A stretch of DNA of 64,000 nucleotides from Candidatus Bathyarchaeota archaeon (GTDB lineage Archaea > Thermoproteota > Bathyarchaeia > Bathyarchaeales > Bathycorpusculaceae): the NCBI GenBank assembly GCA_963815095.1, contig CAWFFH010000006.1, forward strand, positions 64,001-128,000, read 5' to 3'. This document shows, piece by piece, positions 15,123 to 37,618 of this stretch. Made by a program: the position numbers and the translations under genes. Each line of letters opens with the position of its first letter. The first letter of the stretch is position 1. The notes below the pieces were generated by a model. It had not been told where the DNA came from, did no database searches, and worked only from the letters and a program-made list of their open reading frames with translations.

Positions 15123-18000
<2,878 letters not shown>

Positions 18001-18700: not shown

Positions 18701-18765
18701 GAAAACACCTTATATATGCGCTAAATGTAGTGTGTAGATTGAGCACTTAACACTATACGTGTATC
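18701..18765 (+). promoter_or_regulatory. BRE/TATA promoter with two tandem NrdR-box-like sites (18718-18733, 18750-18765)
   Basis: gaaaacacc-TTATATAT then gcgCtAaATgTaGtgt and acaCtAtAcgTgtatc, 32 bp apart; bacterial consensus acaCwAtATaTwGtgt. Confidence 0.65.
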
Positions 18766-18788
18766 ATCAGATTGAGTATGTTAAACCT

Positions 18789-21361: not shown

Positions 21362-21376
21362 GGAGAAAATATCTGA

Positions 21377-22054
21377 ATGAAGTTTAGCGGACTACAAAAA
21401 ATCAGTCTCGTCGACTACCCCGATAGGATAGCGTCAGTTCTGTTTACACCCGGGTGCAACCTTCGCTGCCCCTTCTGCCACAACTGGCGCATCGCTGTTG
21501 ACCCTCAACCGCCTTTTCTGCAGGAAGGCGTGGCATTAGAGATTTTGGAGAGTCGCAAAAAATACGTTGATGCAGTCGTGGTCACTGGAGGGGAACCGTG
21601 CATGCATAAGGAACTGCCTAAATTCTTAGCTAAACTCAAAGAGCGAGGTTTCATGGTAAAGTTAGATACGAACGGGTTCTTCCCAAATGTACTTGAAGAA
21701 TGCTTAGGTCATGTGGATTTTGTTGCTATGGATGTTAAAACCTGCAGTGACAAATACAAGTTGCTGGGCGCTAAAGAAACGACTGGTTTGATGCATACTA
21801 TGGAAATCCTGAAAACGGGTAAAGTGCCCTATGAATTTCGCACAACCGTTGTTCCTGAACTTGTCACGGCGCAGGATGCCACGTGCATTGGAGAGATGGT
21901 TAAAGGCTCAAAAACCCATGCGCTCCAACAATTTGTTCCACAGGACACATTGGACAAACGATATCAAACATTCAAGCCCTATGCACCCGAGACAATCACT
22001 GAATTTGCAAAATTAATTCAGCCCTTCACCGAAAAAGTGGTTGTCCGCATCTAA
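21377..22054 (+). CDS. nrdG: Class III RNR activating enzyme (radical SAM)
   Basis: GCNLRCPFCHN, TGGEP, KLDTNG, YEFRTT; directly after nrdD. Confidence 0.92.
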   Translation: MKFSGLQKISLVDYPDRIASVLFTPGCNLRCPFCHNWRIAVDPQPPFLQEGVALEILESRKKYVDAVVVTGGEPCMHKELPKFLAKLKERGFMVKLDTNGFFPNVLEECLGHVDFVAMDVKTCSDKYKLLGAKETTGLMHTMEILKTGKVPYEFRTTVVPELVTAQDATCIGEMVKGSKTHALQQFVPQDTLDKRYQTFKPYAPETITEFAKLIQPFTEKVVVRI

Positions 22055-22316
22055 CTCTCTGTAGGGCGGACGTTGCCTTTTACCACAAGGCTAATTCCCA
22101 AGTTAGAATACTTAGAAGTAGTCGGCGCTAAGGCCCATAGGACTACTACTTCTATTTGAAAGAGAGAGGATCATTTTAGTTGAATGGTGACCGAAAAAAA
22201 TCTTGGTCCTTATCTATTACTGATATACTTGTTTTGCCCAAGGTGATATTTAGCGTTGAGGAGGTTCTAAAAGATCTGAATGCCTCTTTGGTTAGTTCTT
22301 CACTTGTTGGTTTTTG

Positions 22317-22837
22317 TCATTTCTTGAAGAATTTATCTATCACCAGATTTAGATGATAGAGGTAGTCTTCTTCGGGTCCAACGTATGTTTGAACCACCAA
22401 CATGGCCCTTTCTTTGATTTCGGCCTCTGAGACGTTTGCCTTCTTGATGCAGGCTTCGATGTCTTGCAAATCCCTGTGTCGTTTAGTCGTCCAATTTTGG
22501 TTACGATTATATCGACTGGTTGAAGAGCCCTCAGCACAATGTGGCTGAATTCTTTGATTTTGATGCTTTTCTCCAAGTAATCTTTGGGCAGTGTTTGGCA
22601 GAATATGCATCCGTCTGTCCATCGGTCAACTTTGTAGCCTGGCGGATTGCTTTTCAGAGCTTGCTCAAATTCTAGTCTATCGCAACCTGGAATTGTAAAG
22701 TCGATATCGATTGTTGAGGTTTTTAGGTCCAGCAGAGTCATGGCTGTCCCGCCTGCAGCGACGAGGGTGATCTTTTTAGTCAGGTCCTCGTTTAGTACGC
22801 TTAGAAAGTCAAAGAGGGAGTTTTTGTCACAGGGCAT
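22317..22837 (-). CDS. AbiEii/DUF6036-like nucleotidyltransferase (frameshift near 22476)
   Basis: LVAAGGTAM..L...STIDIDF motif; rejoining frames restores KIGRLND-RDLQDI and ends ...DKFFKK* at 22317. Confidence 0.75.
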
Positions 22838-23885
22838 TATAGAGTTCCAGCTTTTGCCTTATACTATCTTCATCTGCAGGAAATACTTGCGAGTTTATCA
22901 CTTTTAAGATTTTTACGGTTTTATCAACTTCTGGTTTAGGGTTTATTTGTCCCAGGACGGTTAGTATTCCCAATAATCTGGGTGAGACCTCGTACTTTTC
23001 GCTAAGAAACGCCAGAAGATTACTGTTAAAACTGTTCTTGGCGAGAATAACCGCTGCTGCATCAATCCCTCGCGCCTCTTCTCTGAGAAGCAATGATATC
23101 GTTATGTATTCAATGCAGAATTTTTTTCCCTCGACGAAGACAGTGCCAAACTCGCTGTACCCAAACCTGTTAAGGTTGAAGTTTAGGTCCGGGTCTGGGA
23201 TGCTTAGCGGTTTAGTTTCTGTGTGCAGTGTTCTGATTTGGTTTTTTTGTGCGATTTCTTTAATTTGGCTCCAGAACGCTTGAGGATTGTAGAGGATAAT
23301 TTGTTGGCTTAGAGCTTCTCTGATTGGGTTAATTTCATCTGAGGCTAAAAAGTCCAAAAAATAGTTTGCATCTAAGATTAGGCTACTTATTTTTAGGTTA
23401 AATTTTCGTTGAAGGTTCAGGGTGACTTTCTGGAGCTCTATTGTCTGATCGAGATAATCAGGAGTTACATTGAGGAGTGATAGTAGTTCGATTCGGTTTA
23501 ATTTAATGTTCTTTAGCGGGTTGATTGCGCTGATCGACCTAATGCAACATTTCTCACTTAGGGATTTGTCCATCTCGGCAAAGACGGAGAATAGGTTCGC
23601 TTTATTGGATAGGAATTCCAGTTTCTTTTCTAGCTCCATTTCAGAAAGAGTGTCAATCAAAAGGTAATTTTCAAAATTTAGCCTAATGCTTGAGGACCGT
23701 CCAATTGCTTCCAGGTTAAGCAAGCCCTTATTTTTTAGATCCTGCAATTTTTCGTAAATGTTTGCGTAATAAGCAGATCCATACCTACTCTTCATTCGGT
23801 TAGTTAATTCGTTAATTGATAAAGAATCACCTATGCTGGAAGAAATCGCTTCTAGGATTCGAATTGTGACAGTATTCATTACCAT
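22827..23885 (-). CDS. Winged-helix protein, putative antitoxin/regulator partner of the downstream nucleotidyltransferase
   Basis: N-terminal wHTH (SINEL..YANIYEKLQDLKNKGLL...GRS); 11 bp overlap with the NTase gene. Confidence 0.65.
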   Translation of the reverse strand: MVMNTVTIRILEAISSSIGDSLSINELTNRMKSRYGSAYYANIYEKLQDLKNKGLLNLEAIGRSSSIRLNFENYLLIDTLSEMELEKKLEFLSNKANLFSVFAEMDKSLSEKCCIRSISAINPLKNIKLNRIELLSLLNVTPDYLDQTIELQKVTLNLQRKFNLKISSLILDANYFLDFLASDEINPIREALSQQIILYNPQAFWSQIKEIAQKNQIRTLHTETKPLSIPDPDLNFNLNRFGYSEFGTVFVEGKKFCIEYITISLLLREEARGIDAAAVILAKNSFNSNLLAFLSEKYEVSPRLLGILTVLGQINPKPEVDKTVKILKVINSQVFPADEDSIRQKLELYNAL

Positions 23886-23901
23886 TCATCACTGACCAAT
23901 C

Positions 23902-23941
23902 ATAGTATTTTTACTATAATGTTATAGTCAATTAACTATAA
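23902..23941. promoter_or_regulatory. Tandem palindromic operator upstream of the wHTH-NTase operon
   Basis: ATAGTA-tttt-TACTAT (23902-17) and TTATAGTcaattaACTATAA (23922-41); cores 22 bp apart. Confidence 0.6.
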
Positions 23942-24023
23942 TAAAAAGACGACTAGCGCCATTTCATAAAAGTAAAAAACGATATAATCATATGAAATTT
24001 AAGTAATTACCTTTTTCCACCCT

Positions 24024-24153
24024 TAAGAATAAACATAGCTGTTTTGGCGTCCCAACCCTCAGTTAACATTCCCACTGAAATTACGTTTTGGATTTACTCA
24101 CCCTGTTTGCCAACACCGCCTACCGTATTTACCTGTTCACGCAGAAAGTCAGC
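24024..24153 (-). pseudogene. Relic of a type III restriction enzyme Res (helicase) subunit
   Basis: Translates [37 protein letters not shown], containing the SVGMLxEGWD helicase motif of type III Res; in-frame stop. Confidence 0.7.
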
Positions 24154-24399
24154 CCCTTCTTCTATCAGTTAAATAGATGGCGAAATAGTCTTTAAGTCAA
24201 AAGAAGAAAAAACGTCGCTTCTGGAAAAAACTGATTTTTTCTTCTTCTAGAGTTTGTCTCAAGTTCTCGAGTGAAACGACTTCTCAACCCTTTGGTTCAT
24301 AGCAAAACAGAAAATAAAAAATTCAACGCACTATTTCTTCAAACTCAATAAAAGCCTAGCTGAATAGATCATCGTGGAAGACAATAGACATGGAACAGT

Positions 24400-24699
24400 T
24401 TATGACAAAGCTACGACGTCGCCATCATATGTCTGTAGAATAAGCTTGTCCCAAATGCCCTTTTTCCGCAACCATTTCCTATAATTCTCAGCTCCACTCT
24501 TGCCCAATTCTTCAGATTCCCACTCAGCAACAGCTACTGTCACATCAGCACTAGCTCGCATTAGCCTATAGCTTATGAACCCGGGTTGTTGATGAAAAAC
24601 CCTGACCCCTTCTGTATTAATCAGTTTAAAAATTTCTTTAGCCTCTGCAGAATGGAGATCAATGCGCCACTTACCTATTGAACAGCGAAGATAAGTCAA
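24400..24699 (-). CDS. ABM-like barrel protein, paralog of the 8926 gene
   Basis: TY.RCSIGKWRIDL.S.EA..IF..IN.EGVR.F..Q.GFISYRLMRAS.DVTVA.AEWESEELG shared. Confidence 0.75.
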   Translation of the reverse strand: MTYLRCSIGKWRIDLHSAEAKEIFKLINTEGVRVFHQQPGFISYRLMRASADVTVAVAEWESEELGKSGAENYRKWLRKKGIWDKLILQTYDGDVVALS

Positions 24700-24989
24700 A
24701 CTATCACCAATAGAGTGAGGGAGAGGTCTCTAATAGTATATTATGGAGCCTACCGATACAAAAATTATTTTTCCATATGTTTTGTTATTTTGAATTGTGA
24801 ATGAGTTGAAACAAGAAGAGCGCTGTATGCAGAGATTGTGTTTTCTTCTAGTTGCATGAGCGTTCTGCGTTTGTTGGAAAGCAAAGAAGAAACTTGCCGC
24901 GGGAAATCACGCGCTTTCAACACTTCGCAAAACATTAGAAAAGTAGTCATCTGTTGAATTTGCCGGACGACTCCTCTAATCCAAGACAG

Positions 24990-25232
24990 CTAATTTTCTT
25001 CTTGACACTCCGTTTTTGCTTCGGGTTTGTCTTGGAAGGCTTCGATGATCTCGAGGCTGCCATCGGTACTCCATGCTTTTGCGTCTGGAACAAAGGCTTT
25101 GTAGTGCTCCAGGTACTGCGAGTAGGCGCCATCTACAACTATCAGTGAGTCTGCGATGTCTCGGATGCTCTCAAGCATCTCAGCAATGAAAGTTCGATCA
25201 TTGTAGAGATTTAGTAGCGCATGCAGTTTCAA
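24990..25232 (-). pseudogene. Truncated family 2 glycosyltransferase N-terminus
   Basis: L.LYND..I..MLESI...D.LIVVDG...STDGSLEII; ends after 80 aa. Confidence 0.6.
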
Positions 25233-25349
25233 AACTGACTTACCCCTGCATTTTAAAGAGGGTTTGTCAGCTAGCCATTATAAGACTTGAGCTATAGACT
25301 TTAATCACAAAACAATAGAGCAAATAACACTGAACTCGCCATTGAGTGC

Positions 25350-25371
25350 TTAGTCAAGGTTCCTTGACGAA
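25350..25371. repeat. Palindromic site TTAGTCAA-N6-TTGACGAA (also 30179-30200 and 32422-32443)
   Basis: ttagtcaa ggttcc ttgacgaa / ttagtcaa ggatgt tttaccaa / taggtcaa gaaacc tttactaa. Confidence 0.7.
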
Positions 25372-25417
25372 AACCCTTATAAAACAAAAATTTTTGGATA
25401 CCTATTGGAGATACCAA

Positions 25418-26386
25418 ATGAAAGCCCTGATTGTACTAATTACAATAAGCTTCATAGTTTCCCTTTCAATTGTTATGCTCCCTGTTAGAGCGCAAGAACC
25501 GCTCAGCTTAACCATTAAGCCAGATGGAAGCATTGAACCAAGTACAGATTTGCTAGAAAGAAATGGGAACACTTACACCTTTAAGGGCGACATTTTCGGC
25601 ACCATTTGGGTTCAAACCAACAATATTATAATTGACGGTGCAGGGCATTCGCTTCGAGGAAACGGAATTAGCACTGGTCAAAATTCGGAAATTGGCATAC
25701 TGCTAGGTGGACCTGATTTATCCTATCGAATATGCAGAAATGTCTTGGTTGAAAATTTAATGATTTCCAATATACCAAGAGGCATATTCTCTGTTGGCTC
25801 AAGTAACAACAGTTTCATCGGTAATTACTTCGATAAATCAGGTGTTCATCTCCAAGGAAGCGCAAATTACACAGGAGACTTGATAAAACACAACACTTTC
25901 ATAAATGCAAGCATCTTTGTTGATTACAATCCCCTTCCACTTGATGTTCTAACTGAGAATAATTTTATTTACACTGTGATATTCGTTGATTTATCTACTC
26001 CGCCAATTGTAGATAGGAATTACTGGAGCAATTATACAGCAGAATACCCCAACGCAAAGGAATTGGATAATTCTGGAATATGGGATACGCCAAATGTCTA
26101 TGACAAATTTATAGGCGGTAGCCATGGCAACTATTCAGCCATTGATTATCACCCATTAGTAAACCCCATAACCGATTTTGAGATTCCCAACTTCAGCCTT
26201 TTTCCATCAACGACACCTATCACAACAATGCATCCGACCATTAATACTGGTGCAGAACCACCACAAATCGAGCCTTTTTTAACAACATTAGTCATTGGGT
26301 CTGTAATTGTTGTTGCTGTGATTGGTGTTTTAAGTTTGCTGGTTTACCTCAAGAAACGCCATCCAAAATCGGGAGGTAAACCATGA
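25418..26386 (+). CDS. Secreted NosD-like beta-helix protein with C-terminal TM anchor
   Basis: Signal peptide, IKPDGSI..IIIDGAG, NYWSNY..D.SGIWDTP...DYHPL, TM plus KKRH. Confidence 0.85.
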   Translation: MKALIVLITISFIVSLSIVMLPVRAQEPLSLTIKPDGSIEPSTDLLERNGNTYTFKGDIFGTIWVQTNNIIIDGAGHSLRGNGISTGQNSEIGILLGGPDLSYRICRNVLVENLMISNIPRGIFSVGSSNNSFIGNYFDKSGVHLQGSANYTGDLIKHNTFINASIFVDYNPLPLDVLTENNFIYTVIFVDLSTPPIVDRNYWSNYTAEYPNAKELDNSGIWDTPNVYDKFIGGSHGNYSAIDYHPLVNPITDFEIPNFSLFPSTTPITTMHPTINTGAEPPQIEPFLTTLVIGSVIVVAVIGVLSLLVYLKKRHPKSGGKP

Positions 26387-28095
26387 GAAAGAATGTTGTA
26401 TTGCTGGTTGTTCTCGTCTTCTTGGCAACTTCATGTTTAACTGTAAATTTGCCCGTGAAGGCAGAATCTAAAACAATCACTGTACCGGACGATTTCCCCA
26501 CTATTCAAGAAGCCATCAACGCTGCCGACGAAGGAGACACAATATTCGTTAAGAGAGGCAGTTATGTGGAAAATCCAGTTGTCAATAAATCGGTTTCATT
26601 GGTTGGGGAAGATAGGGATGCAACTGTAATTGATGTGACAGCGGGTTTGAAGGTAGAAAGTGATAATGTGACTATAACAGGCTTGACCCTATATGATGGT
26701 TGGCAAGGAATAACAATATCTGCAAATTATTCCAAAATTTCAGGAAACAAGATAACAAATTGTCAATACGGCATAGTGTTACTCCATTCACAAAATAGCA
26801 CTATAACAGAAAATATACTTCAATCAATCGGACTTTCGGCTGCTATTCAGTTGAGCTACTCAAATAATAATTTGCTGAAAAATAATTATGTCGACTCATG
26901 CACGGAGGGAATTCAGCTTAGAGAAGGCAGTTCTAACAACATCGTTGAAGAAAATATTGTAACAAACTGTGACAATGTGGCTGTCCGATTGATGGGTTCG
27001 GGTGTTGGCAGAGTATGGTACGGTCCAAATAATAACACAATAACGCAGAATAGCATATCAAATTCAGGATGCGGAACAACCGTTTATGGTGCTAATGGAA
27101 ACATAATATCCAATAATAATTATGTTAACAATACCGTCCAGTTTTCAGCTAATGAAGATTATTATCTTGTCTGGGGTGGCAGCCGTTCTATTAACACTGT
27201 CGACCGAAATTATTGGAGTGAATACAACGGAACAGACACCAATAGGGATGGCATCGGTGATACCCCATACATCTTAGACGCATACAACCAAGATAATAAT
27301 CCAATGATGTTGCCGATTTCAGTTACAATGCCCAAGTCCGGACAAATTGGTGTTGTGCATTCGGGATCTCCTTCTGAACAGGATAGGGCGTTAGCGTTTA
27401 TTGAAAACGTTCTTCCAATAGATAGTACCCAATGGCATGTAGAACTCAAGGTTGACAGCAATGCAACAGATGCACAAGTTCGCCAGCGACTCGATATCAA
27501 TAACGTTTCTTTCAGTAATAGCGATAATGTGTTGATTTATTTTTTGGGTTCAATGGTAGGTACTGCGGATAGTCTGGAGGTCATTTTGGTAATCAGAGAA
27601 AACAGTTTTTACCAAGGAGTCGTGAATATCGATGACGCGCCATCTTACAATAGTTTTGGACGTCAACTCGAAGTGGCTAACATTACGAATTTCTTGGCTA
27701 ATTACCAGAGCTGGTCGGGGTCTGATTCAACAAAAATGATAGAGACGCTATCAAATGTCGATATAGCTCAAAATACCAGCACAACTTCAGGCAACCTCAC
27801 AATGTCAATCAATCGCACAAACGCTTCTACAGCGATCAGCTGGGTTTTCCAAGATTCTCGTACTTTTAGTGTTTCTTTCCAAAACAATTTCCCTGTCAGT
27901 TTTTATGATGAACGCCAGATTAATTCTATCATACCAACCTCAACACCGCTTCCAACAATTAATACAGGTGCAGAACCTCCACAGACAGAGCCATTCCCAT
28001 TAGTGCCTGTTTCAGCTGCTCTCTTATTTGTTGCAGTGGTTGGAGCCGTGCTGATCTACCCCAAGCTTAGGAAAAGAGGGAAAAACACTGGATAA
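26383..28095 (+). CDS. Secreted NosD/pectin-lyase-like beta-helix protein with second domain and TM anchor
   Basis: TITVPDDFPTIQEAINAA..GDTIFV..G.Y.E, NYWSEYNGTD.N.DGIGDTPY, TM plus RKR. Confidence 0.88.
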   Translation: MRKNVVLLVVLVFLATSCLTVNLPVKAESKTITVPDDFPTIQEAINAADEGDTIFVKRGSYVENPVVNKSVSLVGEDRDATVIDVTAGLKVESDNVTITGLTLYDGWQGITISANYSKISGNKITNCQYGIVLLHSQNSTITENILQSIGLSAAIQLSYSNNNLLKNNYVDSCTEGIQLREGSSNNIVEENIVTNCDNVAVRLMGSGVGRVWYGPNNNTITQNSISNSGCGTTVYGANGNIISNNNYVNNTVQFSANEDYYLVWGGSRSINTVDRNYWSEYNGTDTNRDGIGDTPYILDAYNQDNNPMMLPISVTMPKSGQIGVVHSGSPSEQDRALAFIENVLPIDSTQWHVELKVDSNATDAQVRQRLDINNVSFSNSDNVLIYFLGSMVGTADSLEVILVIRENSFYQGVVNIDDAPSYNSFGRQLEVANITNFLANYQSWSGSDSTKMIETLSNVDIAQNTSTTSGNLTMSINRTNASTAISWVFQDSRTFSVSFQNNFPVSFYDERQINSIIPTSTPLPTINTGAEPPQTEPFPLVPVSAALLFVAVVGAVLIYPKLRKRGKNTG

Positions 28096-28114
28096 AGCAT
28101 GAAGAAGCCAAAAA

Positions 28115-28573
28115 TTATGCTGCTTCTTTTTGAGCCCAAACAACTCGGCACTCCAAATTTCCAGCGCCGTTAGCAGTTGTCTTTCGCATCTCGATTTTTA
28201 TGCTGGGGTCTTCTAAGGGAGCATCAAAGCCGGTTAAGCGTTTATTTGCGGTGTCAAAGTCTAAGCCTTCACCATACATCTTTAGAAACGCCCAATAGTA
28301 AGTCGTGTGCGTTGCATTAAAGCTGCCTGTGAAAGTGCGGTTTTTTGTGGTGATTCTAACTTCAAGAGTCTCATCAGCCACCCAAACAATAGGCACAATA
28401 GAGTAGATACGAGCATTCACTTTGGTGTCTAAAACGGTGTACCATTGGTTCTGCTGTGGGTCAACTTGAACTAATACGGCGTCGGTCTGCAGAGCATACG
28501 GGGAATTCAGTGCCATTATAGCAGAGTAGATTGCTTTGTTTGCCTGCTCTTTATCGTTAAAATTTATGACCAT
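28115..28573 (-). CDS. Hypothetical beta-rich protein (possibly virus-derived)
   Basis: Clean ORF, ATG at 28573; N-terminus similar to the upstream micro-ORF. Confidence 0.55.
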   Translation of the reverse strand: MVINFNDKEQANKAIYSAIMALNSPYALQTDAVLVQVDPQQNQWYTVLDTKVNARIYSIVPIVWVADETLEVRITTKNRTFTGSFNATHTTYYWAFLKMYGEGLDFDTANKRLTGFDAPLEDPSIKIEMRKTTANGAGNLECRVVWAQKEAA

Positions 28574-28578
28574 CCCTT

Positions 28579-28662
28579 TCAGCTCCACTCAACAGCTACA
28601 AGAGCAGTCAATGCCACATAGATTGCCTCTACAGCTTGTTCCTCGTTATTGAAGTCAGTCAT
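28579..28662 (-). CDS. 27-aa micro-ORF MTDFNNEEQAVEAIYVALTALVAVEWS
   Basis: ATG about 40 nt downstream of a TTTATAAA box; homologous to the N-terminus of the next gene (INFNDKEQANKAIYSAIMAL). Confidence 0.55.
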   Translation of the reverse strand: MTDFNNEEQAVEAIYVALTALVAVEWS

Positions 28663-28738
28663 ACGAGCGATCCCTAAATTCAATGGCTTGTTGATCGCTT
28701 TATAAAATTTGAGATGCACTCAACGGAGTTTGATTCAC
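28649..28738. repeat. About 90 bp direct repeat, copy 1 (copy 2 at 29886-29973)
   Basis: ttgaagtcagtcatac..gcga..ta.attcaat...tcgctttataaaatttgagatgcactcaacg. Confidence 0.85.
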
Positions 28739-29057
28739 CTAGCTGCAAGTTAACTCAACTCGCAGCTTTTGGATAAATGGGGCGAAGACCTAAAAAACGT
28801 TGAAGCGATTGCTCGCCTAAATTTCAGCGCAGAGGATATATCATCTTTCTTAAAATAATGTGTGCTCACTCAAAATTAGAAAGGTCAAGATAGAGCTGAA
28901 GAGTGATCCGTGGAAAATATTTTTGAGAAAAAATGCAAATTGGAGATTTGAGAATGTCACAGAAAAAATTTTAGAAAAAAAAGACGTTAATCCAAACGAA
29001 CTAAACAAAAAGAGTCGCTCGGTTTTAAGAAAGAAGAGATAGATTCTTAGTCTAAAA

Positions 29058-29495
29058 TTATATTCCCAATTCTGCGAGTTTTAGCGGACTGTTAATCTCT
29101 ATACCCTTTGTTTGTGTGATAAGACGAGTAAACTTGGAGTTTGCTTCAGCACCAATAGTCGCAACGCGATCGCCCTTATAATTCAGGGTTACAGTAATCC
29201 CTTCTCTGCATAAATCTTCAGCCATTTCTTTTAGGAGTGGTTGCATCTTTCTAGTTTCTTGGATAGTTTTGATGTTTCTGCGAATTGTTTGTCCGACACC
29301 CTTTTTTGTTGTCCCTTTGGTTGCACCTGATACTATTTCTTTAATAAATTTCTTATCAAGGGCATTTACTTCGATGTTTTTGTTCCGCACATTCACTTCG
29401 ATTTTTGGATCATTGTTTTGGCTTAGAGTTAACTTTCCAGACTTTAGAGTTTCAAATAGCATGGTAGTTAACTGCAAATCTGGTCGCCATCGCAT
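29058..29495 (-). CDS. Hypothetical protein
   Basis: 145-aa ORF, co-oriented and tightly linked with 29512-29748. Confidence 0.6.
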   Translation of the reverse strand: MRWRPDLQLTTMLFETLKSGKLTLSQNNDPKIEVNVRNKNIEVNALDKKFIKEIVSGATKGTTKKGVGQTIRRNIKTIQETRKMQPLLKEMAEDLCREGITVTLNYKGDRVATIGAEANSKFTRLITQTKGIEINSPLKLAELGI

Positions 29496-29511
29496 TAGAA
29501 AATTAACTAAT

Positions 29512-29748
29512 TCATTTCTCCGCTTCTTTTGCCATCACGATGTCCAAGATTACTGCTCCATTTAGCCGAGCTTTAAAGACTCCTGCGTCAAGTGTTAGAT
29601 CTTCGAAGCTTAGTTTAATATCAGATTGTTTTCCAGCTAGCTTGTCTATAACTGCGATTATTGTATCACCAATTGTACCCGCGGCATTTTCCATTGATTC
29701 AGACACTTTTTCGGAAGCCTTTTTTAAATTTTCATCTTTATGTTCCAT
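29512..29748 (-). CDS. Hypothetical protein
   Basis: GGAG SD-like motif and TATA upstream; 78 aa. Confidence 0.65.
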   Translation of the reverse strand: MEHKDENLKKASEKVSESMENAAGTIGDTIIAVIDKLAGKQSDIKLSFEDLTLDAGVFKARLNGAVILDIVMAKEAEK

Positions 29749-29885
29749 TAAAAATTCTCCTTAGATTATACCCATCTTTATAATTATTAACTGTATGTTG
29801 AGGTTGCCAGACTACAACATAGGCTTTTATGAGCTAAAAGGCATCCACTTATTTGGCTTTTCACAATTAAATTGATAATTATGGG

Positions 29886-29973
29886 TTGAAGTCAGTCATA
29901 CAAGCGAACCTAGATTCAATTGGGATATTGCTCGCTTTATAAAATTTGAGATGCACTCAACGAGTTGATCCAC
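29886..29973. repeat. About 90 bp direct repeat, copy 2
   Basis: Matches 28649-28738 and includes a truncated MTDFN start on the minus strand. Confidence 0.85.
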
Positions 29974-30083
29974 ATACAAGCAAGTTCTGATTTGACCAAT
30001 CCATCTCCAACCGATCCAGAATTTACATGGTTAACAATCTTTTCCTTGTTCCTCTCTCTGCTCTTTATTGTAATTAAGTTTAG

Positions 30084-30200
30084 GCATCGAAAAACCAGTA
30101 ACTTGAAGCAATGACCTTTTCAACGCTTGGGTGTATCCGCCCTCGGTATTCGTACTAGGTTAAAACTGTTGACTGGCCTTAGTCAAGGATGTTTTACCAA
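30084..30200 (+). repeat. Cassette-boundary repeat: orphan RHRKTSN tail, ctttt..CGcTTGGGTGTAT box and TTAGTCAA-N6 palindrome
   Basis: gcatcgaaaaaccagtaact identical at 30845 and with 1 mismatch at 31316; box also at 31362, 32384 and 33399. Confidence 0.8.
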
Positions 30201-30236
30201 TAATCTTTTATTGCCTTTACCTACCTAATTTCAAGC

Positions 30237-30866
30237 ATGGGTAGAATCAGCAAGACTTTCACATTACTCCTAACTCTAACTATAATGATGTCATCTCTGA
30301 CATTTATGACAGTTAAGCTTGTAGATGCTCAATCAACACCTGTTACAGAAATTACGATTTTGTATCCTGCAAATGGTACGTTCTTCAATGTCAGTATGGG
30401 AGTTGATAGTTTCCAACTGAAATATACAACAAACAACCCTCCACTTTCATGGATAGGCTATAGTATTGATGGTGGTCAAAATAAAACCGCTTATGGAGAG
30501 TGGTTTAATGTTGATCAAATATTATATGATGCTGAAGGAAACCCAAGCGTTAGGGTATCTGGTGTTTTTGAGAGTGATGGAAACCATAGTTTGACCCTTT
30601 ACGCCAATAATACGGCAGGCGATTGGGCTATCCCTCAAATTGTTACGTATCTTGTCAACATTAATTCAGATACTGCCTTTCAACCAACAACTTCAACTCC
30701 AGTACAATCGCCATCTCTATCTCCAACCTCAACTCCAACACTATCTCCAAGAAATCCACCACATTTAGAACCGATAGATTACTTATTATCTATCAGCTTT
30801 GTACTGGCTGTTGTTATTGCATTATCTCTACTGCTTTTTACAATGCATCGAAAAACCAGTAACTAA
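30237..30866 (+). CDS. Secreted Ig-like protein with S/T/P linker and TM anchor ending HRKTSN
   Basis: Signal peptide, SWIGYSIDG, DGNHSLTLYANNTAG, TM. Confidence 0.85.
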   Translation: MGRISKTFTLLLTLTIMMSSLTFMTVKLVDAQSTPVTEITILYPANGTFFNVSMGVDSFQLKYTTNNPPLSWIGYSIDGGQNKTAYGEWFNVDQILYDAEGNPSVRVSGVFESDGNHSLTLYANNTAGDWAIPQIVTYLVNINSDTAFQPTTSTPVQSPSLSPTSTPTLSPRNPPHLEPIDYLLSISFVLAVVIALSLLLFTMHRKTSN

Positions 30867-30970
30867 AACAGGTAGACCTTTTCCGCGATGCTGCATAGAT
30901 TCCAATCATTAAGAACCAAGTTTGGAGCGTAATCAAAGAAACTAAATACTTCTTGTATAGAATAGGTGTT

Positions 30971-31282
30971 ATGGTATCTTTGATTGAGATTCCATTCAGT
31001 TTAGTTGCTTATTCTATTATCGTTGCTCCATTTGTTATTCTAATTATTGGAGCTATTCTGTACCATTACAAACCCACCCATAGATTAACCGTTGGAATAT
31101 TTTTAGTTACTTTGGGAAGTTTTGGACTTGCTATCTTCTCTTTTGTCTTCTATCTTACTTTAATTAATGAGACTAGTAGCTTTGGAGTTTTACTTACTTT
31201 AACAACTGTTTGCACTGAAGTTTTTACTTTGTTTTTAGGGATAAAATCTTTAATGCGTAGAAATTCGAATCCAAACTTGTAA
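30971..31282 (+). CDS. Small 3-TM membrane protein
   Basis: Three hydrophobic helices; AGGTG SD-like motif before ATG 30971. Confidence 0.65.
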   Translation: MVSLIEIPFSLVAYSIIVAPFVILIIGAILYHYKPTHRLTVGIFLVTLGSFGLAIFSFVFYLTLINETSSFGVLLTLTTVCTEVFTLFLGIKSLMRRNSNPNL

Positions 31283-31411
31283 TAGCCTTCGGAATTAACC
31301 TGGTAAATTTAGAAGGCATCGAAAAACCACTAACTTAGCAACTAGATAGACCTCGCGAGCGCTTTTTCAGCGATTTGGTGTATACACTCGCTATTGTCAA
31401 GTCATGAAATG

Positions 31412-32271
31412 TTAGGAAATTGGTGGGGCAAATGATGAAGTGATGTTTGTGGTTAGGACAGCAGACGGAACCATTTCGAGTGGACCCAAAAATGAAATAC
31501 ACCTTTCGTCAAAGTCGTTGAATTTGGTATTAAGAAAATTTATAATTTCCTTTTGTTTTGTGCTATCGTGCAGATGGACATCTAGTTTGTTTGCAATTTC
31601 ATTTACTCCTGTTGCATCGATACTAAATTTTATCATGACTCCAGTCAAAGCGTCTTGAACAGCATATAAGCGAGAAAGAGGAAATTTGGCGGTTTCAAAA
31701 ACTATTCCATCATAGTACCGCATCATATCTCGGTAGGTATTGAGTTTTATTGTGGTTGCATTGTTAGTAAAAATTAGATGCAGGATATAGACTGGTCGAG
31801 GTAAGCTCCTGCAAATTCGTCAGCGTTGGCAGCCTTTTCTCTAAGAAGGGCAATATGATTATCGGTAGCTTGATTGTATTCATATACTGCTATTGCGGAA
31901 CTTGCAATTAAGAGAGTTACAAGTAGAAAAGCAACTGGTTTTAGACCTATCTTGAAGCGTTTATGTCCTTTCTCTTTTGCCTCTTTTTTGGGTGATGCAT
32001 TCTCTACCGTTTGAACCGTAAGCAGAGCATCTTTTCCTTCATCTGATAAACAGTATTTGCCATATTCATCGTCCTTTATCAATCCATTAAGTTTGGTTAA
32101 GTGATGTTGAAGGTGTCCACTACTTTCAATAGCTGTTTTCTTCTTTAAGTCCGCAAATCCAAGAGAACCTTCGCTTAAGACCTTAAGGATGAGTATGCGT
32201 GTTGGATGCCCCAATGCATCAAAGACTTCTGCTCTTTGCCTATCCTGTTCAACCTGCTTATCGTTTTCCAT
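31412..32271 (-). CDS. ArsR-like wHTH plus TM plus extracellular domain (frameshift near 31787)
   Basis: EVFDALGHPTRILIL..LGFADLKK...SSGHLQHHL.KL; TM LKPVAFLLVTLLIASS; the downstream frame 31412-31726 extends open back to the junction. Confidence 0.7.
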
Positions 32272-32646
32272 CTTTTCTCTCTTCCAATATGGCTATTTAA
32301 TCCCTCTTTTTGTAGACCGAAAAAATAACTCTTAGAACGGCTAGTCCAGTTTTCTGGACAACCCACGCTACTCTGAAAGCAACCTTTTCCCACGGTTGGA
32401 TGTATTCATCCACAATTTCGCTAGGTCAAGAAACCTTTACTAAATCTGCTAATTATAAGGGCTACATTAATTTGGGTTTTTTATAAACCGCCTTTTCTTC
32501 GTTTTTTAACTGCTTCAAAACAGAAGACTACATAGTACTCTGTCCATGACCTTTTTCCAAGCGGGTGATGGGGGACCATCAACAATGGCTTTTGACTAAA
32601 AAATTAGTCAACAAAGCCTAAATTTACCAATCATTAATTAGCAGTT

Positions 32647-33351
32647 ATGTCAGGGCTAACCTCACTTCACAAGATTCTCAAAGACGAAACAAGGCAACGA
32701 ATACTACTTTTACTGAATGATAGAGGAAGCGTAAGCTACACAGACTTAATGACCGAGGTGAGGATTGGAAGTACCGGAAAAATGAACTATCATCTAAAAA
32801 TATTAAACGGACTGATTGCAAAAAATGAGAGCGGGCAGTTTTCCATAACTGAGAAAGGTAAACTTGCTATCCGTCTAATGGAAGAATTCTGTGAAAAGAA
32901 AAGTCAGTCACAAAAAGAAGCTTCTTTTCCAAAAGCTTACTTTATTGTTGTTGGAATTTTTTCAACTGTTCTCCTTGCCTTAGAGTTTGGCTTATACGTT
33001 AGCGGGATTATCGGCTTAGACAGATTTGTGGAGTATCTTGCAACCTCCGTTTTAGGTATCGCATTTCTTTTGATTGCTGAACAGGCAAGACGGAGAAGAA
33101 CTATGTCGCAACCTATGAAACAAATGTTGGGGGCAAAAATTGCGTTAATTTTTTCGGGTGCATTTACAGGTGGGGTTACTCTTTTTTTTGGGGGCGGATT
33201 AACTATAGGATTGCTTAAAATTTGGCTTTTTGGCTTTAATTCTTGGATAATAACAAGTTTTACCGTAGGCTCAATTATAGGTGGCTTAATTGGTTATTTG
33301 ATTTATAAGAGAAGCAGATATTCAAAAATCAGCTATTATGAGCCTTTCTAG
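32647..33351 (+). CDS. ArsR-like wHTH fused to 4-TM membrane domain
   Basis: LHKILKDETRQRILLLL...SYTDLM...STGKMNYHLKIL..LI; four TM helices. Confidence 0.85.
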   Translation: MSGLTSLHKILKDETRQRILLLLNDRGSVSYTDLMTEVRIGSTGKMNYHLKILNGLIAKNESGQFSITEKGKLAIRLMEEFCEKKSQSQKEASFPKAYFIVVGIFSTVLLALEFGLYVSGIIGLDRFVEYLATSVLGIAFLLIAEQARRRRTMSQPMKQMLGAKIALIFSGAFTGGVTLFFGGGLTIGLLKIWLFGFNSWIITSFTVGSIIGGLIGYLIYKRSRYSKISYYEPF

Positions 33352-33488
33352 AGATACTGTGAAAAATTTGGGTTAAAGAACACTAGAAATTCCGATGACT
33401 TTTTTCTCACGATTGGGTGTATCACCACTTTGGTGAATTAGCAAAGTCTTATTAATCAACTTAAAACAGAATAAATTGTTGACTGAAA

Positions 33489-33939
33489 ATGGCAAGAAAG
33501 CTTTCTAAAGCAAACATAGCTTTGATTTTCTTTACAGCTATCCTCTTGTTGTCTGTTTTCGCCCAAATTGCGTATCAAGCACAACTACGGATCAAACTAT
33601 TATCCAGAATTCTACATTCATGCTGAAAAATTAACGACAAAACCAGAGCAATATTTCATATTGTCAAACCCCGACCCATACGTCCTCAGAGCAATAAACG
33701 GTGAACAGAACCTTTTAGCTCCCCAAAGAGAAACGCAAATCTTAGATTTAGAGGAACAACATAAAACAAGTAACGTAGAATACAATGGTTCATACTATGC
33801 AGTTTGGGTTGCGTTTGTAGATGCTTTTCCACCGCCTACATTGCCCTACATATTAGCTGGATTTGCTTTGTCGGTCATGGGAATAGTTGCAATACTGATT
33901 TTTCATGTCGCAAGACGCTTTAAGCCACCGAAAAAATAG
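33489..33939 (+). CDS. Secreted protein with TM anchor (frameshift near 33580)
   Basis: Signal peptide MARKLSKANIALIFFTAILLLSVFAQ in one frame, body and TM in the adjacent frame. Confidence 0.55.
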
Positions 33940-34129
33940 AATTTTTCCCGCTTAATTTTTAAGAATAAAAATTTGGGAGCGGTCTTTCCTTGTTGGAATT
34001 CCGCTTGCACAGCAGCGTTATTAATCGACGTGGCTTGTCCAGATACGTACGATTTCTTTGAAGTCCAGGATTTTAGCGCCAAACGTGTGGCTTGCGGTAA
34101 TTTTTAGCTTGCGAGTCTCAATTGCTTTG

Positions 34130-34612
34130 TCGGTTTCAATGAGTAGCTGGGCGCCACAGTGAGAAACCAAACAAATCTCCCGAATCTGAAAACCACGGCT
34201 AGCTAGCGCTCATAACGCTGCTATAATATCCAAAAGTGATAACAAACCCGTTCACAGTCAAAATATCTAGGAGCCATCGAGAAGCTGTTTACAACAGTTG
34301 TTCAAATTACATGGTACAGCTCCAAATATTTGCGGTACTATAGGGCGGGTCAAGCAAAACAATATCAAACAACACGCCCTTTTCACGGAACATTTTAGCG
34401 CATTCCAGGGCATCCATCTTGAAAAGAATACCGGGCAAATCAGGGTCTAGATCGTTGGTGACTTCAATACAACACATCAGCCTTGTGGAACCTGCAAAGA
34501 GGTTAAGCACATACTTGCCCTTGCAGTGCTCCTCAACCCATGCCTTCGTCTTAGGCGCCTTGAACGTGTAGCGGTTAAGCGGCTGACGCAAATAAGTGAA
34601 CTCAACCAAGCC
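34130..34612 (-). pseudogene. Degraded small N6-adenine DNA methyltransferase-like gene (phage/virus type)
   Basis: VLNLFAG (SAM motif I) and LLDPPYS (motif IV), then frameshifted pieces YRKYLELY, VITFGY, RGFQIREICLVSH. Confidence 0.7.
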
Positions 34613-34787
34613 GATGCCTCCGTTTATCAACGTGGTCCTGATAGAGTTCCTCTTCAATGAGCGCCTTATCCATCAAATCAGCAAGCGCTTTGCCCATGTC
34701 GCCGCCAAAATAGCGGTCGACAATCGTTGCGGAAAACGCTTTGAGAAGCTGAGTTGAGACCTTATTATATTCTTGAATACTGCTCAA
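34602..34787 (-). CDS. Small hypothetical protein, paralog of 49970-50227
   Basis: LLKAFSATIVDRYFGGDMGKALADLMDKALIEEEL vs MLKEFAQKIVLPYFHGNMNKAIRSLMEKAITEETM. Confidence 0.6.
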   Translation of the reverse strand: MSSIQEYNKVSTQLLKAFSATIVDRYFGGDMGKALADLMDKALIEEELYQDHVDKRRHRLG

Positions 34788-34869
34788 GAAAAGAGGCCCC
34801 CAAAAACGTTTATAGCCTGTGCTAAGCCTGAAAAATACTTAATTTTTAAAATAAAGGAAAAAGATGATA

Positions 34870-34894
34870 GAAAAACTACTATTAGTAGTTTTTC
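34870..34894. terminator. Perfect hairpin just 3' of tRNA-Asn
   Basis: gaaaaactact-att-agtagtttttc. Confidence 0.5.
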
Positions 34895-34904
34895 ACGTAA
34901 GTGT

Positions 34905-34981
34905 TGGCGCCGCCGAAAGGACTCGAACCTTTGACCTACTGATTAACAGTCAGTTGCACTACCGGGCTGTGCAACGGCGGC
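34905..34981 (-). tRNA. tRNA-Asn(GTT), CCA encoded
   Basis: GCCGCCG/CGGCGGC acceptor stem, ACTGA-CTGTTAA-TCAGT anticodon arm, GGTTCGAGTCC. Confidence 0.95.
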
Positions 34982-35186
34982 AAACCATTGTTCTCTCATC
35001 TTTCAGATTCACAAGACTATTTAAGTTTAGCCGTGTTTCCGAAACAGGCTGTTGGACAAATCTCAAAGAACTTTATTTGATGATTTAAGTTGCTATGGGT
35101 GGGTTGGTTGCTTGTTGTAGTGGCGAGGCTACAACACGATCTTATATCTTACATCTTCTCTCTTACTATATTAGTAAGTTTGGATT

Positions 35187-35528
35187 TTGAAACATTTTAC
35201 GGAGTTGAACAAAATTTTTAATAAAAAAATATTCCACGGTGCCATTCTCGAAAGCATCATTCTAAACCTAATAAACGAAACTTCTGATTATGGTCTACAC
35301 GGTTACGCTATCCTGACGGCCGTACAGAAAAAATTCGGCATACGGTTAGGTCCCTCTTTGATATACCCTGAGCTCAAACGTTTAGAGAAACGGGGGTTCA
35401 TAACTTCAAGCTGGATATTCGTCTTGGGAAAAGCCCGCAAGCAGTACCGAATTACGCAAAAAGGGCAATGTTTACTTAGAGAATATTTTGTGGAGTTAAA
35501 AGCAGTCATACCAGTTTTCGCTGCATAA
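35187..35528 (+). CDS. PadR-family transcriptional regulator
   Basis: LHGYAI......GPSLIYPELKRLEKRGFI.S.W....ARKQYRITQKG. Confidence 0.9.
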   Translation: MKHFTELNKIFNKKIFHGAILESIILNLINETSDYGLHGYAILTAVQKKFGIRLGPSLIYPELKRLEKRGFITSSWIFVLGKARKQYRITQKGQCLLREYFVELKAVIPVFAA

Positions 35529-35717
35529 AAAAATAATATAGTTGCTGAATCCGTTTTCTTCCTGTCTCCTATGCGTAATTATCGGAAAATAAGCGTGATT
35601 TGCCGTTAAGGGTTATAAATTCAATTGTACTCATGTACAACGATTATTTTCTTATTATGTTGCGAGCACAAGTTTTTATACCCTTTTTGTACATGGGCAA
35701 CATACAAGAGTCTTTTT

Positions 35718-35843
35718 ATGGTTGACTGCCCTAAATGCGGAAAAAAACTGAGTAAACCCGATAGAAAACTCGAAAATTTTGTCTTCTTTATTGCAGTTTT
35801 CACCTGCGACGAATGTGAAACCCAAATCAAAATAACTCACTGA
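35718..35843 (+). CDS. 41-aa zinc-ribbon micro-protein
   Basis: MVDCPKCGKKLSKPDRKL...FTCDEC; TTTTTATA box about 40 nt upstream. Confidence 0.6.
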   Translation: MVDCPKCGKKLSKPDRKLENFVFFIAVFTCDECETQIKITH

Positions 35844-35888
35844 ATATTTAAGAAGCCAAAGATTATAAACGTAAAAGCAGAAAAATGG

Positions 35889-37352
35889 CTATTCTGTTCG
35901 TCTCACTTTGTACTTTGCGATCGCTGAGAAGCCTTTATAGAATTCTTTCATAATGAGTGAGTACCATTTGCCCGAAAAAGACCAATCTAACAGGTTGTCA
36001 ACCCAGCGGAAGTCGTGTTCGGCACATGAAACCAGCAGTTGCTTATGCAAAGAGCTAAGCTTCGTTTCTTCAAACCAGTCTGCGCTCTGAAGTTTTCCCA
36101 GGGGAACAAAGAACAATGGCACAATCAGGCTTCGCATATCTTTGAGGTCGTCAACCAAATCCATCGTTTTTATTACATCGTCCTCGGTTTCGTCGGGTAA
36201 CCCAACAATCAATGTACAAGCGGGAACCAGTTTGTTATCATGCATCAAACCCATGCCGTTCACAACTACATCATGCCAATTTTCTGCCAGAAATGGATGA
36301 GCTTTTGCAGGCATAATCTTCTTTGCCACATCGCCTGACCCAGTCTCGATGCCCACTTCAGCACCCCACCAAGTTTGGTTCTGCAAAATAATCTCCGAAA
36401 GTTCGTGGAAAAGTTTAGGCGAAGAAGCCACTGCAGCCAAAGAACAATGACTCCAACTTATCCCATCAACCTGTTTCATAACCATCTTGTGCAAAGCCAA
36501 AATCTGCTCCCCATTTGGCACAGTGTTATTTGAGCCATAAAGCATAACATCTTCAGAATGGAGACAAGCACCAGTCACTTTATCCGACGACAAATTAACT
36601 TGGAGTTCTCGGTCAATTTTTTCAATCGGATACCATCTTAACGGGCGCAAAGTGACGTTGCAGAATTGGCAGCCACGACAACATCCTCGTCCAATCTCAA
36701 TCAAACCATTAATCGAAGGTGAAACAATATCGGGAATTTCTTCCAAACTTGGAACTTCACTAGCACCAACCTCGTAATGACTTGGAAGATCTTGACCTTC
36801 AATAGCTGCTTTAAAGAGCTTACCCACTACATTTTCCCCTTCCCCTTCAACCACGCAGTCGATGCCCAAATCCTTAACCAATTTTTCTCGATACTTAAAC
36901 TGCCATGCCCCGGGACCTCCGACAATAACTTTTAAGCCGTTTTGTTTTGCTTTTTTGATTTCCGAACTTCTAAGTAATGCTTGAAAATACTTTGCAAGAT
37001 ATGGCTCTTTTTTGAAGATAGATGCAAGAGTTGTAGAGGCAGGTCCTAAACCAAACGGATCCATCGCGTGAATGCCCAGAACCTTTGCATCCTTTAAGGC
37101 GTCTCCAAGGCGATTTGGGCTTAGGGTTTCCACTTTGAAGCCTTCTTTTAGAAGTTGGGCTTCAGTTTTTCTTAGGCCATATGGAGCTGCCCAAGGTTGT
37201 CCGTTGCTGGTTTTTAGATGCGGAAAAAAAAGGTAGCTATAGAGCCATTCGGGGATAAAATTTGGAGGGGCGCATGTACCGAAACCTAGAAATTCATTAT
37301 TATGATAGTTACTCATTAGCGTTCTGTCCGCAGTTAAAATTACATCTGCCAT
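35889..37352 (-). CDS. B12-binding-domain radical SAM protein
   Basis: APYGLRK.EA, VIVGGPGAWQ, EIGRGCCRGCQFC, GIETGS. Confidence 0.88.
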   Translation of the reverse strand: MADVILTADRTLMSNYHNNEFLGFGTCAPPNFIPEWLYSYLFFPHLKTSNGQPWAAPYGLRKTEAQLLKEGFKVETLSPNRLGDALKDAKVLGIHAMDPFGLGPASTTLASIFKKEPYLAKYFQALLRSSEIKKAKQNGLKVIVGGPGAWQFKYREKLVKDLGIDCVVEGEGENVVGKLFKAAIEGQDLPSHYEVGASEVPSLEEIPDIVSPSINGLIEIGRGCCRGCQFCNVTLRPLRWYPIEKIDRELQVNLSSDKVTGACLHSEDVMLYGSNNTVPNGEQILALHKMVMKQVDGISWSHCSLAAVASSPKLFHELSEIILQNQTWWGAEVGIETGSGDVAKKIMPAKAHPFLAENWHDVVVNGMGLMHDNKLVPACTLIVGLPDETEDDVIKTMDLVDDLKDMRSLIVPLFFVPLGKLQSADWFEETKLSSLHKQLLVSCAEHDFRWVDNLLDWSFSGKWYSLIMKEFYKGFSAIAKYKVRRTE

Positions 37353-37618
37353 TTGCGTTTCCTCTCAGTCATTCTTTAAAACTACTGTATAGCGAGATTT
37401 TAGTCACTCAACGGGGGGATATAACTTTATTGCTATCTATCTTGACCACAAAATCATGGTGTTTTTAGTGCTAAATGCTGAAGCTTCGATGGTATTTATG
37501 TCAATGTTGATTAAGGTTATTTTTACATTAAATTCGAGTGTTTTTGCGTTTAACCACGAAAATGTATATCAAGGTACTCGTGAATTTACTAGAGAAAAGA
37601 CTTAGTGAAGGGATTGCT

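Follow-up and report, generated by a model that had tools for sequence, protein, structure and literature searches.

In Sulfolobus acidocaldarius, the promoter of flaB carries two inverted-repeat boxes (TCGAC-N5-GTCGA) that are bound by ArnR and ArnR1, with binding requiring both; the two proteins combine a helix-turn-helix (HTH) at the N-terminus with C-terminal transmembrane helices and regulate the gene for a cell-surface structure (PMC6396743). A related arrangement is described here in a 64,000-nucleotide stretch of the genome of a soil archaeon of Candidatus Bathyarchaeota (the window; G000:C6:64001-128000, in a genome of 2.69 Mb, 41% G+C, and nine contigs), in which short palindromes—inverted 8-bp arms around a 6-bp centre—lie among surface-protein genes in a strain-variable island. 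It is concluded with good confidence that these palindromes are predicted operators for a dimeric winged-helix-type transcription factor, and that their likeness to the borders of gene cassettes would stem from the mosaic of surface-protein genes in which they sit.

ArnR/flaB is the nearest described case found. The likeness lies in tandem inverted repeats before surface-protein genes and in membrane-anchored HTH proteins encoded in the same island, one of which, the product of 32647-33351, has the N-terminal HTH and C-terminal hydrophobic segments of ArnR. The differences are several. The ArnR boxes are 15 bp long and serve a few pilus or archaellum promoters, whereas here GTCAA-N6-TTGAC lies within a 22-mer that precedes dozens of promoters. 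Unlike for ArnR, neither a HAMP nor a sensor domain is reported by Pfam for the window proteins, with HTH families only in the 32647-33351 protein; the membrane-HTH subfamily does not track the 22-mer; and the operator is here a predicted one. Within a limited collection of literature, nothing was found that contains the 22-mer motif (among the papers listed, unrelated primer matches only) or that concerns Bathyarchaeia promoters or their TATA box.

Archaeal Lrp/Ptr2-type activating sites, and repressor operators at the TATA box or at the recognition element (BRE) for transcription factor B (TFB), are dyads and often paired, and their position decides whether TFB and the TATA-binding protein (TBP) are recruited or excluded. 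The sites described here are likewise dyads, often two, immediately upstream of or overlapping the BRE/TATA, whereas the candidate regulators are a three-winged-helix protein with four cysteines (Cys4) or ArsR/DUF7347 proteins. Two recombination systems are also relevant. The pdif/Xer sites are imperfect inverted arms around a 6- to 8-bp centre without shared conserved sequence, which bracket modules as inverted copies; here too, 6-bp centres are flanked by inverted arms, and several copies stand close to single genes. Integrons hold promoterless cassettes with a structured attC beside intI and attI, and IS1111-type IS110 elements target attC. The present locus resembles them in its short single-gene units with a conserved junction element and in an IS110 element that hits a precise spot in a repeated tail sequence. 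Unlike integron cassettes, however, the units come with a promoter and operator each, neither an integrase gene nor attI was found, and no junction hairpin is supported.

The palindrome TTAGTCAA-N6-TTGACNAA represents a 22-bp motif, TTAGTCAAGAAAYYTTGACNAA, of which the genome holds about 106 copies. The bare 8-mer is unenriched in the window (six matches against 3.2 expected, a number reached by 14 of 100 shuffles), and the literal two-arm pattern gives 29 strand matches at 24 places genome-wide. A genome-wide motif scan, as the first-pass annotation of this region had proposed, reveals strong enrichment: a spacer-blind 16-position consensus with up to two mismatches occurs at 34 places, against 0-3 in five shuffled genomes whose scan used a slightly stricter pre-filter. 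The iterated matrix for TTAGTCAAGAAAYYTTGACNAA reaches at least 14 bits at 106 places, and its matches on both strands number 135 at 14 bits and 88 at 18 bits, where one shuffled genome has 9 and 0. The centre reads GAAA../..TTTC in 24 of the 34 spacer-blind sites, and it follows that the spacer is conserved and the site has a direction; under a relaxed rule the count is 29 of 34, and matrix positions 9-12 stand at G93 A95 A96 A94 of 106, in a matrix itself seeded with GAAA. The core half-sites, GTCAA-N6-TTGAC, form a dyad whose halves lie 11 bp apart centre to centre; this is about one helical turn, a spacing that would fit a dimeric winged-helix protein. Among 23 neighbouring same-strand pairs, 13 lie exactly 24 bp apart and the other 10 at 32-35 bp, with the distal copy usually a better match than the promoter-proximal one.

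The first-pass annotation had reported three 8-6-8 palindromes with a variable 6-bp spacer. Those at 25350 and 30179 are as described, the former with an identical copy before a paralogue at G000:C4:10531; the third, at 32422, is only a two-mismatch variant, and the variability of the spacer is contradicted by the 24 sites just mentioned. Back-to-back half sites had been noted at two places as well. Those at 32592-32611 stand, while those at 30169-30186 are the junction of the 30179 site with a degenerate neighbour at 30155, which at 6.0 bits is not significant.

The position of the sites fits the operator reading. Places scoring at least 18 bits number 75 and group into 50 clusters, 33 of which have a TATA-like string (e.g., aaNccttttatt) at an offset of 3-4 nt, compared with 1.3% of 20,000 random positions taken as a control. 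In 28 of these 33 TATA-linked clusters, an open reading frame (ORF) with an ATG start and no fewer than 45 codons begins 15-110 nt past the site, most often at 34-46 nt. The sites sit exclusively 5' of genes, either single or as tandems of the same orientation. The proximal site extends with its right half into the BRE, and this half (TTTACGAA) is consistently weaker than its counterpart in distal sites; because of this overlap, a bound protein could recruit or exclude TFB/TBP.

The 28 proteins encoded downstream are largely of one build: the N-terminus is hydrophobic in 24, a hydrophobic C-terminus with basic residues is present in 20, and 19 have both, against 197 of the 1820 genome ORFs of at least 150 aa in which both termini are hydrophobic. 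A PEF-like motif lies in the last 50 residues, before the helix, in 7 of the 28. Pfam assigns the 22 proteins scanned to Kelch (4), PQQ (2), NosD/beta-helix (4), winged-helix HTH (1), or no family (12), one protein appearing under PQQ as well as NosD; the downstream genes are thus not all homologous. A fixed distance upstream of TATA boxes of conserved core genes had been named in the first-pass annotation as the mark of an operator. The fixed distance is indeed found, albeit before surface-protein genes, many of them strain-variable, rather than before the conserved core.

Conservation within the genus points the same way. Of 18 further genomes of the genus, 11 contain the 22-mer pattern in exact form; 12 genomes representing other families of the order have none, and the reversed pattern, used as a control, is absent from all 31. 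When up to two mismatches are allowed in five genomes that lack an exact match, G015 yields 15 copies (control 1) and the other four yield 1-2 each (control 0-1). The relatives' loci keep the layout—tandem sites, a TATA-like string after 3-4 nt, and a gene product that is hydrophobic at the N-terminus and anchored at the C-terminus—as in the orthologue of the 25418 gene in G009.

One or two dimers would bind the 22-mer or 22-mers cooperatively. The bound factor would then recruit or exclude TFB/TBP, co-regulating some 30-50 promoters of mostly exported, C-terminally anchored proteins. On a slight balance of probability the factor would be an activator; a role as repressor is nearly as plausible.

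Two groups of proteins come into question as regulators. The membrane-anchored HTH protein encoded at 32647-33351 (..SLHKILKDETR..) was considered and not adopted as regulator of the 22-mer, as its subfamily has an everted operator of its own and no close homologue in G012 and G007. Among 52 loci in other Bathyarchaeia records (within L023-L074) that encode homologues of this protein, 36 carry the everted TTGAC-N10-GTCAA in its strict form, always with N10, directly before aaaccctaaat. This everted site is probably an autoregulatory operator, read through the same half-site and older than the 22-mer regulon. The subfamily is present in G015.

The second candidate is a 328-aa protein (G000:C3:649363-650349, minus strand) in which four cysteines are invariant (CxxC-x7-C-x3-C) and three winged-helix units are predicted, and whose gene has two strong operators 95 and 119 nt before its ATG. 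Its family was sampled as 24 genes from 26 loci (L096-L121) in 17 genomes; operators lie within 400 nt upstream of 8 of the 24 genes, in 8 of the 17 genomes (G000, G010, G011, G005, G017, G016, G012, and G007), in a sample in which some loci were picked because their proximity to an operator had already been noticed. In these eight species it is divergent paralogues that have the operator or operators upstream, whereas the conserved paralogue has none. In G000 the operator-less paralogue lies at C3:506324-507256. In G005, G016, and G017 the motif occurs only two, two, and one times per genome at up to two mismatches, and one copy in each stands before a Cys4 gene. A structure model of the protein (pLDDT 74) gave no sequence match in the Protein Data Bank and only generic MarR/ArsR fold matches, all at E > 0.001. 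The Cys4 family is put forward as regulator of the 22-mer as a candidate only, with a likelihood somewhat below even.

Several points weigh against the operator reading and its proposed regulators. The regular expression for the TATA-like string was composed after the sites had been inspected, with the random-position control as the sole guard against circularity, and gene starts follow a first-ATG rule with no gene caller. Seventeen of the 50 strong clusters have no TATA-like string at offset 3-4, some of them being located within reading frames or at a frame's end. Across genomes, the 22-mer is not tracked cleanly by any candidate regulator. G012 and G007, both 100% complete and holding four and six exact 22-mers, have no close homologue of the membrane HTH protein, their best matches (E ~1e-8) covering the HTH only; the Cys4 family was not found in G004 (92% complete), which has seven exact sites; and the operator-less Cys4 paralogue is the only one in G002, G006, G013, and G014. 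The junction analysis given below, finally, consists of BLAST end-points, chiefly against one close relative (G137) and paralogues.

Between the units lies a second conserved element, termed the box. Its core, TTGGRTGTAT, occurs three times in the window against 0.2 expected, a number that none of 100 shuffles reaches. The copies that had been reported at about 30115, 32384, and 33399 are confirmed by profile (25.4-30.3 bits) and that at 31362 is weak (13.9); two partial copies, at 30877 and 32550, can be made out by eye but went unreported by the profile. The box is a composite. A T-tract (..WRGA|CCTTTTYCC) closes the upstream unit some 20-25 nt past the stop codon of its tail, and the next unit begins with the core (CACGGTTGGGTGTAYCCACC), about 3-30 nt ahead of the first operator. 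The T-tract may be a terminator, and the core may be a second regulatory site. As a structured RNA element the box was dropped: searches of Rfam over 20-40 kb of the window (E ≤ 0.1) matched a tRNA and nothing else, RNAalifold predicted no pairs in 12 box copies, and the pairing of the core dyad is no better than in shuffled alignments.

In comparisons of this genome with G137, L029, or paralogues, homology breaks at a T-tract at six junctions (33406/33959, 32382, 32548, G000:C5:160225, and G000:C4:5428). Five boxes have a counterpart in G137; three of these break at the T-tract and two (30113 and C5:162343) are continuous. The recurrent junction between units is thus the T-tract of the box and not the palindrome, so that of the cassette-like array proposed in the first-pass annotation the mosaic of units differing between relatives is upheld, while the placing of its junctions at the palindrome is not.

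The repeated 20-mer at the ends of units codes for the basic end of a membrane anchor and occurs three times in the window (30084, 30845, and 31316) against none expected. As first noted, and as translation of the frames bears out, one copy closes the 30237 gene (that at 30845, ending ..FTMHRKTSN and a stop in 30237-30866) and the other two belong to orphan tails. Around orphan tail 1, the whole block of tail, box, operator, and gene recurs in G137:C3 at 88%; G000:C4 shares only the tail and the start of the box. Of orphan tail 2, the corresponding sequence (FRRHRKT.) stands directly before the membrane-HTH gene in L023, L024, and L033 and closes a surface-protein frame in L023 and L024; orphan tail 2 is probably the remnant of such a gene. 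Orphan tail 1 has the tripartite end of PEF-CTERM type (P-E-F, helix, basic residues), while most tails, including that of the 30237 gene, are without PEF. None of 12 tail-bearing sequences matched an NCBIfam sorting-signal model at E ≤ 0.1, and because no curated model matches, the tails are called PEF-CTERM-like only. The genome has one gene of the exosortase/archaeosortase family.

The same tail sequence is the target of an IS110-family element (DEDD_Tnp_IS110 and Transposase_20) with four near-identical copies of about 1.29 kb in this genome and none in the window. All four sit at the same position in the tail-coding sequence of different surface-protein genes (..TTGCTTTTTAG[element]AAGGCATCGAAAAAC..), which identifies the 20-mer as the right half of a specific insertion target. 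A related IS110 end in G042 has a different flank. The four copies add 1.3 kb of homology between surface-protein loci.

The first-pass annotation had taken the palindromes for Xer/dif-like (pdif-type) sites at which a tyrosine recombinase exchanges single-gene cassettes, with a transcription-factor operator common to the promoters as its alternative. For recombination speak the imperfect inverted repeats around 6 bp, the shuffled mosaic of the region, and homologies that begin at or a few nucleotides before a site, at 25349 (G009), 25345 (G137:C6), 30169 (G000:C3), and 32593 (G137:C6). A start of homology at the left edge of a site, which is frequent, is however predicted by the operator and Xer models alike, and both the G000:C4 paralogue and G137:C6 cross the 25350 site unbroken. 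No junction can be placed in a palindrome spacer, a weak test given that alike sites would hide an exchange there. Unlike pdif sites, moreover, the palindromes have a conserved, directional spacer; they occur 5' of genes only, with a TATA-like string 3-4 nt away in 33 of 50 clusters, and never bracket units; their tandems, at 24 or 32-35 bp, share one orientation instead of being inverted around modules; and some of the approximately 106 copies precede conserved single genes, such as a regulator gene in eight species. No recombinase is linked to them: of four PF00589 matches in the genome, three of which exceed the family cut-off, not one falls within the window or next to a site cluster, although Xer proteins act in trans and the location of PF00589 genes by itself cannot rule Xer/dif out. 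With the recurrent junction at the T-tract, Xer/dif sites driving cassette shuffling are extremely unlikely, and it is the operator alternative that is supported, by the fixed TATA offset, the non-homologous targets, and the conservation in the genus. That the palindromes are functionless relics of one promoter, duplicated together with its gene family, is very unlikely too. Several site-bearing genes are indeed paralogous (MG+I.K.F and NosD-like), and promoter-gene blocks are duplicated in the genome; yet the sites also precede unrelated gene families, the dyad and its position are kept across species while the flanks diverge, and genomes with one or two copies have one upstream of the same regulator-family gene.

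A different possibility keeps the palindrome as an operator and takes the beginning of the box (..WRGA|CCTTTTYCC.., the dyad core included or not) as a dedicated recombination site, so that the units would be true mobile cassettes. The six junctions, and the three of five G137 counterparts that break, fall at the T-tract, and at G000:C5:160225 identity is 100% over 700 nt rightward with no similarity leftward. Only 17 matches to the box profile exist in the whole genome at E ≤ 10 (11 of them at E < 0.01), all in a handful of surface-protein clusters, and 82% of the cells of the core dyad (GGNTG-N4-CANCC) are paired. That pairing, however, is equalled by 165 of 500 column shuffles; the T-tract is the natural border of a conserved 3' and a conserved 5' module, at which ordinary crossing-over or selection would give the same BLAST ends; the boxes have no linked recombinase gene, and the window contains none; other rearrangements in the island use plain repeats of 63 and 77-104 nt; and the sample is small, from one relative. 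This explanation is regarded as unlikely. The simplest reading of the T-tract junctions is unequal crossing-over between repeats together with survival of those events that spare the genes. A wider proposal would make the junction of tail, T-tract, and core a recombination joint at which units and tails are added, removed, or swapped, and which, together with active IS110 turnover, would form a cassette system for surface variation in soil Bathyarchaeia under one operator; it is conceivable, albeit doubtful.

Under the operator reading, the order tail-box-palindrome-TATA-gene would result from surface-protein genes lying head to tail in the tRNA-Asn island: the end of one unit (anchor tail, stop, T-tract) would abut the start of the next (box core, operator or operators, TATA). 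Duplication, unequal crossing-over, and deletion between the repeated junctions and between the direct repeats D1 and D2, presumably by homologous recombination, would then yield gene fusions, exchanged tails, orphan tails, and a promoter without a gene.

The features on which this account draws are collected in Table 1.

Table 1. Features of the island and related elements (window coordinates unless a contig is named).
Feature	Position	Strand	Details
Strain-variable island	22221..34869	.	12.6 kb; encloses palindromes, boxes, and 20-mers; from comparison with the relative G137
Palindrome, promoter-proximal	25350..25371	+	TTAGTCAA-GGTTCC-TTGACGAA; 28.7/22.3 bits; TATA-like cttataaa starts 3 nt on; ATG 25418
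Palindrome	30179..30200	+	TTAGTCAA-GGATGT-TTTACCAA; 22.1 bits; TATA-like cttttatt 4 nt on; ATG 36 nt on
Palindrome of orphan promoter	32422..32443	+	Two-mismatch variant TAGGTCAA-GAAACC-TTTACTAA; 26.3 bits; TATA-like string, no ORF downstream
Everted palindrome TTGAC-N10-GTCAA	32592..32611	+	TTGACTAA-AAAA-TTAGTCAA; abuts TATA-like gcctaaat; ATG 32647
Variant palindrome GTCCAG-AAAA-CTGGAC	32341..32362	-	18.1 bits; upstream of 31774-32271 gene; conserved before L010 and L013 orthologues
Box	30113..30149	+	T-tract and core; nhmmer 27.1 bits
Box, weak	31359..31395	+	nhmmer 13.9 bits, E 0.11
Box	32379..32419	+	nhmmer 30.3 bits; G137:C3 homology stops at T-tract (32382)
Partial box	32548..32575	+	L029 homology starts at its T-tract; by eye
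Box	33399..33435	+	nhmmer 25.4 bits
Orphan tail 1	29950..30111	+	Start-less frame ..DPEFTWLTIFSLFLSLLFIVIKFRHRKTSNLKQ, then stop; DPEF, hydrophobic helix, RHRKTSN; 20-mer at 30084
Orphan tail 2	31308..31345	+	Only ..FRRHRKTTN.. left; 20-mer at 31316
Two overlapping NosD/beta-helix genes	25418-26386 and 26383-28095	+	Pfam NosD, Beta_helix; hydrophobic N-terminus, C-terminal anchor
63-nt repeat D2	26215..26277, second copy 27933-27995	+	78% identical; linker before anchor
Direct repeats D1	28649-28725 and 29886-29962	+	83% identity over 77 nt, 85% over 104 nt by BLAST; flank a 1.16-kb segment
Two ORFs in D1-flanked segment	29058-29495 and 29512-29748	-	No Pfam, PHROGs, or PADLOC match
209-aa surface protein, MG+I.K.F paralogue family	30237..30866	+	Hydrophobic helix, then HRKTSN end; no Pfam family
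103-aa small membrane protein	30971..31282	+	Without recognisable operator
165-aa ArsR/DUF7347 winged-helix protein	31774..32271	-	Pfam PF24038 and HTH_5; one hydrophobic segment
234-aa membrane-anchored winged-helix protein	32647..33351	+	DUF7347/HTH_20 in residues 9-76; four hydrophobic segments from residue 92
552-nt unit (box core, degenerate promoter, gene)	33407..33958	+	Missing from G137:C6 and G137:C3; bounded by GACTTTTTTCTC and GAATTTTTCCC
Small protein gene, hydrophobic N-terminus and C-terminal anchor	33489..33939	+	Two frames; apparent frameshift near 33560-33590
tRNA-Asn (GTT)	34905..34981	-	Right edge of island 35 nt past tRNA 3' end
IS110-family copies	G000:C4:1457-2500(-), C4:83792-84835(+), C3:1398743-1399786(+), C3:1060991-1062034(+)		Outside window

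The island is delimited by its flanks. G137, a relative reached via L023, is 94% identical to and collinear with the window at 10799-22220 and 34870-38000; between these flanks it holds 26.8 kb of other DNA, compared with 12.6 kb in the window. In 40 other genomes of the genus the island is matched only by scattered pieces of at most about 2 kb, and pieces of it recur, reordered, in G137:C6, G137:C3, G000:C4, G000:C5, and G000:C3. No att-like partial copy of the tRNA-Asn was found in the genome and no integrase gene in the island, and eight unassigned island ORFs gave no match in PHROGs or PADLOC. Three stretches (28762-28985, 24916-25010, and 22060-22163) have matches of 75-92% in many genomes of the genus, with several copies per genome; that at 24916-25010 is matched at five places in G001. 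At 34150-34800, on the minus strand, lie broken reading frames with an ..LDPPY.. motif, which is typical of DNA methyltransferases; paralogous pieces occur in G000:C5, and these frames are possibly the remains of an integrated element.

In line with the first-pass annotation, the region encodes surface proteins and membrane-anchored HTH proteins. The island consists of duplicated, fused, and truncated surface-protein units and forms a mosaic that differs between close relatives. The D2 repeat is the point at which the two NosD-like genes are joined into one in both G000:C4 and G137:C6, and the G137 orthologue of the second has a different, PEF-type tail from about 27947 onward. The D1-flanked segment is absent from the paralogous G000:C4 copy. 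The public reads listed for the stretch come from four DNA runs of one study with thin contig sets, and no RNA run is among them; in a soil run, one short contig joins 28694 to 29932 across 31 letters common to both sides, a length taken to be the word size of the assembler, and the joint may be an assembly artefact. The counterpart of the 32422 site in L010 (G040) precedes a 178-aa gene whose product has a hydrophobic N-terminus, and the 32422 promoter is read as one that has lost its gene. A 41-nt exact repeat (33587-33627, identical to G000:C6:5282-5322) encodes ..GSNYYPEFYIHAE.. at both places and was ruled out as the cause of the frame change in the 33489 gene.

Bathyarchaeia are abundant and mostly uncultured, and a sharply defined predicted operator at a fixed place before some 30-50 promoters of exported proteins constitutes a testable regulon. 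The 22-mer would help in fishing for the regulator, in reporter design, and in predicting which cell-surface proteins are regulated. That palindromes are centred on 6 bp and stand beside single genes of a variable island does not of necessity make them recombination sites. The T-tract junctions and the tail-specific IS110 insertions offer leads on how archaeal surface-protein repertoires turn over.

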